From Escherichia phage vB_EcoM_SA20RB, in sequence record OL960581: a DNA stretch of 64,000 nucleotides; one strand, 5' to 3'. The notes under the pieces were generated by a model. That model did not search any database and was not told the origin of the DNA. It worked only from the letters and a program-made list of their open reading frames with translations. Within the stretch, counting starts at the first letter, position 1. Every line of letters starts with the position of its first letter. Positions 23,889 to 39,260 of this stretch are shown here, piece by piece. Both the position numbers and the translations under genes were made by a program.

Positions 23889-24252
23889 AAATATCAAATT
23901 CGTTAAGAACTACATCAAAGATCGCTTCAAGATGCTCAGGTTTAGCTCTGTTACTCAGAATATGACGAATCCAAGTTTTAACCAGAAGCTTACGATTGAC
24001 GCCATTCCAGCAAGGATGAGTACCTAAATCGCGTTGACGGAAATCATCATCTAATGCGATTTTAAAAGAAGAACCTTCTTTCGTGATTGAAACCGTGATG
24101 CCATTTTCAAATCGCATATAAACGTAGTTAGGAGTCATATACTGTTCAATTTCGCATACTGATCCATTTTGATGTTTCCAAAGGCAGATAGTATCAATAG
24201 AACCTGCAATACCATTAGAAACATATTTACGTTCAAAGTTGATGTAGTTCAT
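23887..24252 (-). CDS. hypothetical protein
   Basis: 121-aa ORF; early promoter upstream. Confidence 0.6.
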   Translation of the reverse strand: MNYINFERKYVSNGIAGSIDTICLWKHQNGSVCEIEQYMTPNYVYMRFENGITVSITKEGSSFKIALDDDFRQRDLGTHPCWNGVNRKLLVKTWIRHILSNRAKPEHLEAIFDVVLNEFDI

Positions 24253-24289
24253 TTTTATTCTCCGAGATGTTTAATTGCGGTACAGGTAT

Positions 24290-24318
24290 ATAATATCATA
24301 TCCTGTACCAAAGTAAAC
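24290..24318 (-). promoter_or_regulatory. T4-type early promoter
   Basis: Minus strand reads GTTTAC, 17 nt, TATTAT. Confidence 0.55.
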
Positions 24319-24320
24319 AA

Positions 24321-24653
24321 TTATTTTACTACTTTCCAATGTTGCATGTCAAGTTTACCAACTTTTTTCATCTTCTCAATTAAGCGTTCGGCACGTTGGC
24401 GGGCTGTAACATAATACCATTCACCCAATTCATTTTGTTCAATTTTTCCAACGATTACTGTATTCAATTCATAAATCCAACCAGTAAAGAAATTATGAAC
24501 TTGAATTGTAAAGGTGAAATCTGTTCCCATACCTTCTGTTGTTTCTACTTCAATAATATCACCTTCAACTGCCATTAAGAACCACATAGTTTCATCATAT
24601 TTACCATTGAAGCATTTAGTTTTAACTGTAGCGTTCAGATTAATCGTTTTCAT
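24321..24653 (-). CDS. hypothetical protein
   Basis: 110-aa ORF; early promoter upstream. Confidence 0.6.
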   Translation of the reverse strand: MKTINLNATVKTKCFNGKYDETMWFLMAVEGDIIEVETTEGMGTDFTFTIQVHNFFTGWIYELNTVIVGKIEQNELGEWYYVTARQRAERLIEKMKKVGKLDMQHWKVVK

Positions 24654-24680
24654 TTTATTCTCCTTTGTTTGTGTAAGATA

Positions 24681-24710
24681 ATACTATCACAAAGGAACTA
24701 TACTGTAAAC
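24681..24710 (-). promoter_or_regulatory. T4-type early promoter
   Basis: Minus strand reads GTTTACA, 17 nt, TAGTAT. Confidence 0.55.
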
Positions 24711-24723
24711 AACTTTATGCAAT

Positions 24724-24758
24724 CTTTGGAAAATAAAAAAGGACTCCCGAAGGAGTCC
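24724..24758 (-). terminator. terminator hairpin GGACTCC-CGAA-GGAGTCC plus T-run
   Basis: 7-bp stem followed on the minus strand by TTTTTTATTTT, directly after the upstream ORF stop. Confidence 0.65.
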
Positions 24759-24763
24759 TCAAC

Positions 24764-24982
24764 TTATGCTTTCTGCTTACCAAAACGAGAAGCATCATCT
24801 CGAAGAACCGCACGTGCTCGGCGCATGATCTTCTCAACAGTTTGATTGATACGAGAGTTCGACCCACGCTTGTAACCAGCGCGTTTAGAATCACCAACTT
24901 TCTTTTCAACTGCTTTCTTTGCTTTAGCTTGTTTTGCCATTATAAATTCTCTTTTAAATGAAAATGCAGGACTTATTGGCAT
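24764..24982 (-). CDS. small highly basic protein (start may be the internal Met at 24940)
   Basis: 72-aa ORF; the MAKQAKAKKAVEKK... portion is Lys/Arg-rich. Confidence 0.5.
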   Translation of the reverse strand: MPISPAFSFKREFIMAKQAKAKKAVEKKVGDSKRAGYKRGSNSRINQTVEKIMRRARAVLRDDASRFGKQKA

Positions 24983-25134
24983 TGCCTGCGAAAGCCCTCA
25001 AGGGGTACTTAGGTTTTGAATATTTACCGACAGGATAACCATAAACCTCGTCAACATTCAAGAGGTACACCGTAAAACAAAGTTCGACGGCTCCTCGTTT
25101 TAACTTCACACTAAGGCAGTGACTCTCCAATAAA

Positions 25135-25383
25135 TTACTTCAGTGTTACCACAAAGTGACGAACTGCTTTTCGTGCAGCAGAAGCCAGAGGCTTAGCATA
25201 CTTAAGTTCATCTTTTTCCTGAAGCTCAGCGGCTAATGCAGTTTGAGCAGGATTCAGATGTTTGAAATAACGCAGGATTTCAAGAGCTTCGGCTTCAACA
25301 TCAATAGATGCGCCATAGTTTTCGTGACCATTATTCCATGCGTTTCGTTGCAGTTCAAGAGCGTGTTGTAATTGTTTAATCAT
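25135..25383 (-). CDS. rIII: rIII lysis-inhibition accessory protein
   Basis: 82 aa as in T4; position between 30.x and 31. Confidence 0.8.
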   Translation of the reverse strand: MIKQLQHALELQRNAWNNGHENYGASIDVEAEALEILRYFKHLNPAQTALAAELQEKDELKYAKPLASAARKAVRHFVVTLK

Positions 25384-25522
25384 TTAAAAATTCTCGTTAG
25401 AGATTAAAACTCGGTAGTCACGTTCTTCTGAATTTCATCTTCTTTCGACAGATCTCTCAGTTGTAGACTACCACATAGAATTGTTCGGTTAACTTATTAT
25501 TCCGACACCCAATTCATATTAT

Positions 25523-25530
25523 TATTTATA
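25523..25530 (-). promoter_or_regulatory. late promoter TATAAATA downstream of 31, upstream of rIII
   Basis: Exact TATAAATA on the minus strand immediately after the gene 31 stop. Confidence 0.5.
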
Positions 25531-25866
25531 TCACTTATAAAGACACGGAATAGCTTTATAGTGACAGGTTACGAATTTTTGTTTAATTTCTTTTGGCTGC
25601 TTAAGACCCAGAGCTACAAAAGGATGAGGAACGTTTCGAATTTGACCAACTGGAAGAGAAGTCAAATCACCAACTTCGCAGAAACCTTCAGGAACATCAG
25701 GACCAACAGAGTGAACTACACACAGTTCAGGAACTTCACCTTGGACACGTTTACCAATAATAAGTCCTGATTCTGTAACTTCTTCATCACCGGCTTGTGC
25801 AGGTTCAGAAACTAAAATAACATATTCACCGACAGCACGAATTGGTAGCTGTTGTACTTCAGACAT
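25531..25866 (-). CDS. 31: co-chaperonin gp31 (GroES analogue)
   Basis: 111 aa as in T4; sequence recognised. Confidence 0.95.
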
Positions 25867-25896
25867 CGTTTTTCCTTTTTGTTAACAGATGAATTA

Positions 25897-25921
25897 ATAA
25901 TAACAAATAATTCTTAAAGCA
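25897..25921 (-). promoter_or_regulatory. MotA-dependent middle promoter for gene 31
   Basis: Minus strand reads TGCTTTA, 12 nt, TATTAT, about 30 nt upstream of the ATG. Confidence 0.55.
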
Positions 25922-25922
25922 T

Positions 25923-26231
25923 TTATTTACCAATAAATTGAAGCAAATGCTCAACTTTCATGCCATTAACGGAAATCAATTTGTCAATAGAAAAACCTCG
26001 CCATGCACCGAGCTCAACATCAAATACCGGAATCATATCAGTAGATTCTTTCCGAGTAGATTCAGTCAATTTACCAGTTTGCATGGTTGGCATAAAGTCT
26101 GCATCACGAGTGCCTTTCATGGTACGAATAGTACCATCAGACTTTTCAAAAACCACGTTTGAAATACCCATGGACAATTTAGTTTTCAAAATTTCACGAA
26201 TTGCTACTTTCTGTTCAGTTGTCAATTTCAT
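25923..26231 (-). CDS. hypothetical protein (31.1 position)
   Basis: 102-aa ORF. Confidence 0.6.
   Translation of the reverse strand: MKLTTEQKVAIREILKTKLSMGISNVVFEKSDGTIRTMKGTRDADFMPTMQTGKLTESTRKESTDMIPVFDVELGAWRGFSIDKLISVNGMKVEHLLQFIGK

Positions 26232-38437: not shown

Positions 38438-39260
<823 letters not shown>

Follow-up and report, generated by a model that had tools for sequence, protein, structure and literature searches.

A predicted ToxI-like antitoxin mimic in the rIII-30.9 spacer of a T4-type bacteriophage

In type III toxin-antitoxin systems, the canonical layout is a promoter, a repeat array, a terminator and a toxin gene, and the repeat is the RNA antitoxin ToxI (PMC8860590, PMC3401426). 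When an infecting phage shuts off host transcription, the labile ToxI decays and the toxin ToxN is freed (PMC10853763, PMC8860590). Phage PhiTE can suppress ToxN with a phage-encoded ToxI-like RNA, termed pseudo-ToxI (Blower et al., 2012; PMC3475682), which natively comprises 1.5 out-of-phase repeats with no complete unit, so that escape is reached only by expansion of the repeats or by hijacking of ToxI. In T4-type phages, protection from ToxN is provided by the protein TifA (T4 gp61.4; PMC9391042, PMC10853763). Here we analysed a 64,000-nt stretch of Escherichia phage vB_EcoM_SA20RB (sequence record OL960581; hereafter the window), in which the spacer between the lysis inhibition gene rIII and the small gene 30.9 contains a single unit resembling ToxI. 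By analogy with the described systems, the main content of this spacer is probably a previously unannotated, phage-encoded ToxI mimic.

The unit resembles the pseudo-ToxI of PhiTE in being a non-coding, phage-borne ToxI-like sequence without an adjacent toxN gene, and it may act in the same way, by RNA mimicry of the antitoxin against ToxN. A flexible length of loop 2 and compensatory changes at the 9-25 pair are also common to PhiTE and the T4-type units. Unlike PhiTE, however, the window carries one complete in-phase unit, located in an mRNA between two genes and accompanied by a conserved hairpin, and units of this kind are kept across many Tevenvirinae in several ToxI types. With the bacterial 38-nt ToxI arrays the unit shares a 35-38-nt sequence family and the same pseudoknot core, while it lacks an array, its own promoter and terminator and a downstream toxN, has altered junctions and resides in a lytic phage. 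The proposed function would serve the same end as TifA, the protection of T4-type phages from ToxN, but TifA is a protein whose gene lies at a different site in the genome, whereas the element described here is an RNA.

A BLAST search of the region against 50,697 phage records returned, in addition to the T4-type phages, Phapecoctavirus 'nieznany' and Pseudomonas phage PsgM04F, which are unrelated to them and matched over only ~50-80 nt of the spacer. When 95 nt of the spacer were compared with 72,556 plasmids, six matches were obtained, all to the first 36 nt; one of them, on a Pantoea plasmid, fell inside an array of 5.8 tandem copies of a 38-nt repeat, preceded by a TTGACT/TATAAT promoter, closed by a terminator and lying directly upstream of an annotated ToxN/AbiQ toxin gene (Pfam ToxN_toxin, E = 3e-39). 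ToxN homologues were collected, their loci were fetched from bacterial genomes and the upstream repeats were extracted, giving 33 distinct bacterial ToxI repeats, all adjoining ToxN genes (alignment A3), from which a covariance model (R1) was built. Searching the window with R1, with filters off and on both strands, produced a sole significant match in the 64 kb, at 25131-25097 on the minus strand (38 bits, E = 5.8e-6), showing that the sequence content of the spacer is far from chance. A second match (38916-38950, 15.5 bits, E = 0.31) lay in a coding gene and involved only the tails, and was set aside as chance. The unit starts 3 nt past the rIII stop codon and, apart from a 2-nt deletion in loop 2, shows ~94% identity to the 38-nt repeats of Pantoea, Proteus, Yersinia and Pectobacterium; compared with the Proteus/Yersinia/Pectobacterium repeat AUCGGAGAGUCACUACCGUUAAGUGUGAAGUUAAAAC, it has two substitutions in addition to that deletion. 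Based on these sequence comparisons, homology of the window unit to ToxI, the RNA antitoxin of type III (abortive-infection) systems, is well supported. The gene 3' of the unit is 30.9, which has no ToxN_toxin domain, and neither a nearby toxN nor a promoter within the spacer was found. A BLAST search of the spacer against complete E. coli genomes gave no match, the query being too short and gapped to be informative, and a search of the plasmids with the T4-type unit also gave none and thus brought up no cognate ToxI cluster for it.

The pseudoknot was evaluated in the register of ToxI_Pa, whose numbering was checked against PMC3475682 (U-1, U9-A25, U16-18, C27 and U28) and whose sequence was confirmed on a Klebsiella plasmid array; the U9-A25 register matches the numbering of the ToxIN crystal structure quoted in the same paper. 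The core consists of G2G3:C14C15 and a 4-bp helix formed by positions 8/9-11 with 23-25/26, and all six core pairs can form in the window unit, including C9-G25, A10-U24 and C11-G23. Among the 33 bacterial repeats, 95.5% of the cells were paired, with pair 12-26 changing from A-U to G-C in 12/33, and 0/500 shuffles reached the observed pairing values. The 18 phage-borne units gave 99.1% paired cells and five compensatory cells, again with A-U to G-C changes, and no shuffle reached these values, although the fitting of their alignment (A4) to the model works in favour of the structure. In every bacterial array inspected (L007, L130, L140-L147), the first repeat starts AAAGGUGAG and the internal repeats start AAUCGGAGAG; the unit of Phapecoctavirus and PsgM04F has the 'first-repeat' form and the T4-type unit the 'internal' form, a difference in sequence that hints at separate capture events.

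The unit varied among T4-type phages. The window and G3G7 (Tequatrovirus) carry it with the 3' tail GAAGUUAAAAC, T4 (Tequatrovirus) carries GGAGAUUCACUGCCUUAGUGUGAGCUAAAUC, and PP01, T2 and Aplg8 (Tequatrovirus) as well as P479 (Gaprivervirus) have units with the 3' tail ...GAGCUAAAAUC. Yersinia phage YenM_P8 carries AGGUGAUUCGCUACCUUAGUGCGGCUCGAAAAUC and Klebsiella phage Roth34 CGGUGAUUUGCUACCAAAGUGCAGCUAGAAAU, while 38-nt-type units sited after the hairpin HP2 (described below) were present in KMB19 (Karamvirus) and CHI14 (Winklervirus). In SEA1 (Gelderlandvirus) the unit is truncated, in RB69 (Mosigvirus) and QL01 (Dhakavirus) it is precisely deleted with retention of the hairpin HP1, and in LF82-7 (Mosigvirus) both the unit and HP1 are absent. 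A comparison of the window with PP01 showed differences at 5/35 positions of the unit and at 5/159 of the remaining spacer. The Roth34 unit shares ~94% identity with the ToxI repeat carried by 70 small plasmids from E. coli, Salmonella and Klebsiella, and the ToxN of one such plasmid (L163, the one checked) matches the ToxN_Pa structure 2XD0 with E = 3e-100; the window type matches 38-nt ToxI repeats of Enterobacterales, among them those of one E. coli assembly. Judging from these alignments, the rIII-30.9 locus has undergone repeated gain, replacement and loss of ToxI-type units, and the unit types appear to resemble the toxIN types found in the corresponding host ranges. Because the units of relatives belong to other ToxI types, the locus behaves as a specificity cassette that can be exchanged.

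Units were also found far from rIII. In Phapecoctavirus and PsgM04F, the match occupies a gap without annotation that separates tRNA-Pro from tRNA-Gln in a tRNA cluster, on the tRNA strand, and R1 detected single units filling inter-tRNA gaps on the tRNA strand in the orders Ile/unit/Met (L089, L097), Asn/unit/Asp (L119) and Pro/unit+HP1/Gln (Phapecoctavirus). Such units fill their gaps exactly (L005, 2497-2590; L047, 5218-5310; L089, 11131-11177; L119, 11187-11256) in at least three unrelated phage groups, and they are unannotated or, in PsgM04F, mis-annotated as a small ORF. A 341-kb IMG/VR jumbo-phage contig (L033, 3300011202_000010) has at 1560-2120 four ToxI-like units of four types together with an HP1-like hairpin within ~450 nt, a repeated motif UUGGCUUAUUC.UUAGAUACUUCUAC following three of the four; from its sequence, this cluster looks like a multi-specificity anti-ToxN array. 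The first pattern scan of IMG/VR was too permissive, most of its 120 loci being chance matches that were filtered by context. On two Vibrio plasmids (L008, pMBL128, 1502-1538; L009, a 925-kb replicon, 1502-1537), an orphan unit scoring 58 and 50 bits with R1, respectively, has an intrinsic terminator behind it and no annotated toxN within 1.5 kb; these may be antitoxin-only plasmid elements.

The unit of the window is followed directly by the companion hairpin HP1, which is present there in a short form and has a long form of 89 nt in T4, T2 and RB69 and of 98 nt in PsgM04F. In alignment A5 (nine sequences), 98.9% of the cells of its 25 pairs were formed and six pairs showed compensatory changes, the structure having been derived from the same nine sequences that were used to score the pairing. 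HP1 was also observed in Phapecoctavirus, in PsgM04F, in the jumbo contig L033 (GGAGCAGUCGAAC...ACUGUGUACCUU) and in a 76-kb viral contig (L164). In the latter, the motif GGAGCUGUCGAA...UUUUACAGUGUACCUC at 2216-2260 follows a stop codon and precedes a terminator; it has a compensatory stem change, and no ToxI-like unit accompanies it. HP1 may be an RNA motif in its own right. Further hairpins were recognized downstream by eye (Table 1). HP2, which has the stem variants GUC(A)UAG/CUAGAC (CHI14) and GUGG/CCAC (SEA1, Roth34), is followed by an A-rich linker ending CAAAACC, and it precedes the ToxI-like unit in other genera. The HP3 element comes directly after the rIII stop codon in KMB19 and CHI14. 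HP4 reads ACUGG...CCAGU in SEA1, a compensatory change that is suggestive only. HP1 and the downstream hairpins probably act in processing, stability or the translation of 30.9.

A covariance analysis across relatives had been proposed from the sequence alone; compensatory changes were seen in the ToxI-like unit and HP1, while RNAalifold gave no covariation support for the 3' half and proposed another fold for the HP2 region. The folding energy of the whole spacer was unremarkable compared with shuffles (z = -1.07). An Rfam scan of 24000-26000 (E <= 10) found nothing in 24941-25134, a result that is uninformative because the bona fide ToxI array L007 matches no Rfam family either (E <= 1); a match to Atu_C8 at 24725-24808, which overlaps the terminator, stays below threshold (31 bits, threshold 50) and most probably arose by chance. 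ARAGORN detected no tRNA or tmRNA in the window. The spacers of relatives appear as mosaics of short cassettes: an insert of ~45-55 nt (UACUAUCAYGCGUCAGAAAARGUUAUCUGUSUAAGUCKUGGU...), absent from the window and T4, lies between HP1 and HP2 in T2, RB69, QL01 and YenM_P8 (L150, L152, L155, L156). An extra insert of ~200 nt (GCGGCAAGUGCAUGCUACCCCGAGGUGAUGGCCAAUCGGGAGUACGCCUCAAGGCC...) is common to phages of three groups, G3G7 (L151, ~640-850), P479 (L154) and Roth34 (L158); it is annotated as tiny hypothetical ORFs, had no Rfam match at E <= 1 and could be another mobile structured RNA.

Table 1. Features of the rIII-30.9 region, in window coordinates and in the order of the transcribed strand
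Feature	Coordinates	Strand	Evidence or context
TATAAATA box	25523-25530	minus	directly 3' of gene 31 stop, ~140 nt upstream of rIII; read from sequence
rIII, lysis inhibition accessory protein, 82 aa	25135-25383	minus	PHROG 1457, E = 4.7e-44
Single ToxI-like unit AUUGGAGAGUCACUGCCUUAGUGUGAAGUUAAAAC, 35 nt, predicted antitoxin-mimic pseudoknot	25097-25131	minus	covariance model and BLAST
HP1, companion hairpin, short form GAGGAGCCGUCGAACUUUGUUUUACGGUGUACCUC (GAGGAGCCGUCGAAC...ACGGUGUACCUC)	25062-25096	minus	directly after unit; alignment A5
HP2, hairpin GAC(G)AGG...CCUGUC, conserved loop GGUUAU	25029-25052	minus	by-eye comparison
HP3, small G+C hairpin GUACCCCUUGAGGGCUU	24992-25008	minus	by-eye comparison
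HP4, hairpin GCAGG...CCUGC	24966-24989	minus	just upstream of 30.9 ribosome-binding site; by-eye comparison
Gene 30.9, basic protein, 58 aa	24764-24940	minus	PHROG 1427, E = 2.3e-31 over residues 1-58
Intrinsic terminator GGACUCC-UUCG-GGAGUCC, then U run	24739-24760	minus	annotated as terminator in G50 and Aplg8

Over 901 nt around the spacer, the identity was 100% to Escherichia phage vB_EcoM_G50 and 98-99% to many Tequatroviruses, and by this measure the phage of the 64-kb window is a Tequatrovirus. All local genes are minus-strand genes, arranged as in T4 (cd, 31.2, 31.1, 31, rIII, 30.9 and 30.8). A sequence-only reading of the window had placed the spacer before rIII; on the transcribed strand the order is instead rIII, spacer, 30.9 and terminator, and the spacer is both the 3' region of rIII and the leader of 30.9. 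The terminator closes the rIII-RNA-30.9 transcription unit. The box upstream of rIII has the sequence of the established T4 late-promoter consensus and is a putative late promoter. Within the spacer itself, a scan found no sigma-70-type promoter and reading of the sequence no TATAAATA box, as the same reading had stated, and stem-loops, of which it had mentioned several as possible, are present. Its suggestion of a structured leader or small RNA holds in that the spacer is non-coding, with conserved structures that show compensatory changes, but the identity of the RNA as a ToxI homologue with a hairpin had gone unseen. Past the 30.9 terminator and before 30.8, a minus-strand sigma-70-like site (TTTACA-17-TAGTAT with TG) occupies 24709-24681 and fits the early-promoter region known in T4 upstream of the gene 30 cluster.

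The basic ORF downstream of the spacer is, by sequence and synteny, T4 gene 30.9 (PHROG 1427), with rIII upstream and the terminator and 30.8 downstream as in T4, PP01 and T2. The sequence-only reading had described an ORF at 24764-24982 encoding a Lys/Arg-rich product that might bind nucleic acid or ribosomes; the minus-strand ORF exists and its product is very basic (pI 11.3-11.4, Lys+Arg 29-33%, net charge +14 to +15), but its start is at 24940. The gene is annotated as 58 aa from this codon (MAKQAKAK...) in T4, PP01, T2 and G50, a Shine-Dalgarno-like GAGA lies ahead of it at 24948-24951, and the upstream ATG at 24982 reads ACG in RB69, QL01 and YenM_P8, while in LF82-7 it lies in another frame that soon reaches a stop. 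Since 30.9 begins at 24940, the spacer measures 194 nt (24941-25134) and not the 152 bp (24983-25134) previously given. Searches with gp30.9 returned PHROG 1427, a family of unknown function, as the sole match, with no relative in Pfam, NCBIfam or the PDB, and gp30.9 was rejected as a TifA-like protein because it has no similarity to this ToxN inhibitor. The gene persists in RB69 and LF82-7, which have no ToxI-like unit, so that a link between 30.9 and the RNA would be hypothetical.

From known ToxIN biology, the PhiTE precedent and the comparative pattern, we consider that the rIII-30.9 spacer probably encodes a phage-borne ToxI mimic that neutralizes ToxN. The unit and HP1 sit between the TATAAATA box upstream of rIII and the terminator after 30.9, a position from which the unit would be transcribed from phage promoters within the rIII-30.9 mRNA. 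As the phage shuts off host transcription and the labile ToxI of the host decays, the phage-made unit would replace it, bind the free ToxN and hold it inactive, so that phage mRNAs would remain uncut and the infection would not be aborted. By sequence similarity, the likely target of the window unit is the ToxN cluster with 38-nt repeats, found in Pantoea, Proteus, Yersinia, Pectobacterium, Klebsiella and, rarely, E. coli.

Several observations weigh against a functional mimic, and part of them would be explained if the unit were a relic or 'seed', captured by recombination with a toxIN plasmid and inactive unless later amplified as in PhiTE. The unit is single: a tandem repeat was sought at 24700-25450 and not found, and R1 detects one unit only. 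The native 1.5 repeats of PhiTE are inactive until expanded (PMC3475682). Loop 2 of the window unit is 2 nt shorter than that of the bacterial repeats, and a shortened loop 2 is common to all units found in T4-type phages. The array junctions read AAAA(A/C)AAUCGG, while the window unit is bounded by UUUAUUGG (UUUAUU) on the 5' side and AAAACGAGG on the 3' side and lacks the AAAU-type junctions that flank array units, although T4 and PP01 keep AAAU at the 3' side and this yardstick, the AA^AU processing site of ToxIN_Pa, may not be the cleavage motif of the 38-nt-type ToxN. A plasmid-borne E. coli ToxIN (Laub laboratory) strongly protects against T2, T4 and T6 (PMC9391042), of which T2 and T4 carry the unit at rIII-30.9 and T6 matches the unit-plus-hairpin query, and since all three stay blocked, the T4-type unit is not sufficient against that E. 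coli ToxN. RB69, the phage least affected by this system, owes this to TifA (PMC9391042) and has no unit; the unit has likewise been lost from QL01 and LF82-7, and SEA1 retains only the truncated form. The remaining objections concern the proposed target and the literature. The 38-nt-type toxIN was found in 0/5,426 complete E. coli genomes, against 52/5,426 for the ToxN_Pa type, and in E. coli was seen in only one draft assembly and one read-set assembly; the solved ToxN structures are only distant relatives of its ToxN (E ~1e-25). No report of expression, processing or ToxN binding of the spacer RNA was found in the literature, and publications on ToxIN, TifA, pseudo-ToxI and type III systems yielded no ToxI-like RNA for T4-type phages or the rIII-30.9 spacer, although this coverage was incomplete and an earlier report is possible. 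Nevertheless, a relic would not be expected to keep a full unit, paired to 99% and with compensatory changes, in at least five genera, nor to yield unit types that track those of the plasmids in the host range, and the same kind of unit is present independently in the tRNA clusters of unrelated phages. Moreover, two bona fide toxIN loci in Arsenophonus have one unit, so that a tandem array is a usual but not an absolute feature of ToxI. On balance, we regard an inactive relic as unlikely, though it deserves serious consideration.

The original suggestion of a structured leader would, in its purely cis-acting version, make the spacer a 3' stabilizer of the rIII mRNA and/or a translational leader of 30.9 with no function in trans. 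The conserved hairpins HP1-HP4, above all HP1 with its six compensatory pairs, agree with such a role, as do the proximity of HP4 to the 30.9 ribosome-binding site, the solitary HP1 ahead of a terminator in L164 and the retention of the hairpins without the unit in RB69. However, it leaves unexplained the 38-bit match to ToxI, the host-type-specific variants of the unit and the units in tRNA clusters with neither rIII nor 30.9 nearby, and we think it improbable that cis action is the whole account. That the spacer instead hides a small protein gene seems highly improbable. The spacer had been described as having no ORF, yet the mechanical ORF list holds both a TTG-start ORF of 58 codons at 24954-25130 (minus strand) and the 72-aa extension of 30.9. 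The former is not conserved and is not coding, because indels of 50, 94 and 204 nt in the spacers of relatives break its frame, and it has no Pfam match; the upstream ATG of the latter is not conserved, and substitutions in the spacer follow RNA pairing, not codons.

If the spacer does encode a ToxI mimic, a broader picture can be proposed more tentatively, and we hold it as possible rather than probable. The rIII-30.9 spacer of T-even phages would be a hot-swappable site for anti-ToxN cassettes, with two positions and with types tracking the toxIN of the hosts, and the strategy would be widespread and unrecognized in large lytic phages, in which tRNA operons might release units via the tRNA-processing machinery and jumbo phages might carry multi-specificity 'cocktail' arrays, HP1 being a new companion motif on which the mimic would depend for its stability, processing or delivery.

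Studies of ToxIN abortive infection use T4 and its relatives as their reference system, for which TifA is so far the only counter-defence described. If our interpretation is true, the best-studied phage family would have, besides TifA, a second layer of counter-defence that is based on RNA. As no other part of the spacer varies as much as the unit, the mimic could in that case also account for some of the differences in host range that near-identical phages show. Model R1 would then provide a simple sequence marker for the ToxIN types that a therapeutic phage can evade, and the ToxI-like units in phage tRNA clusters would be suggested to be anti-defence RNAs and not inter-tRNA junk.

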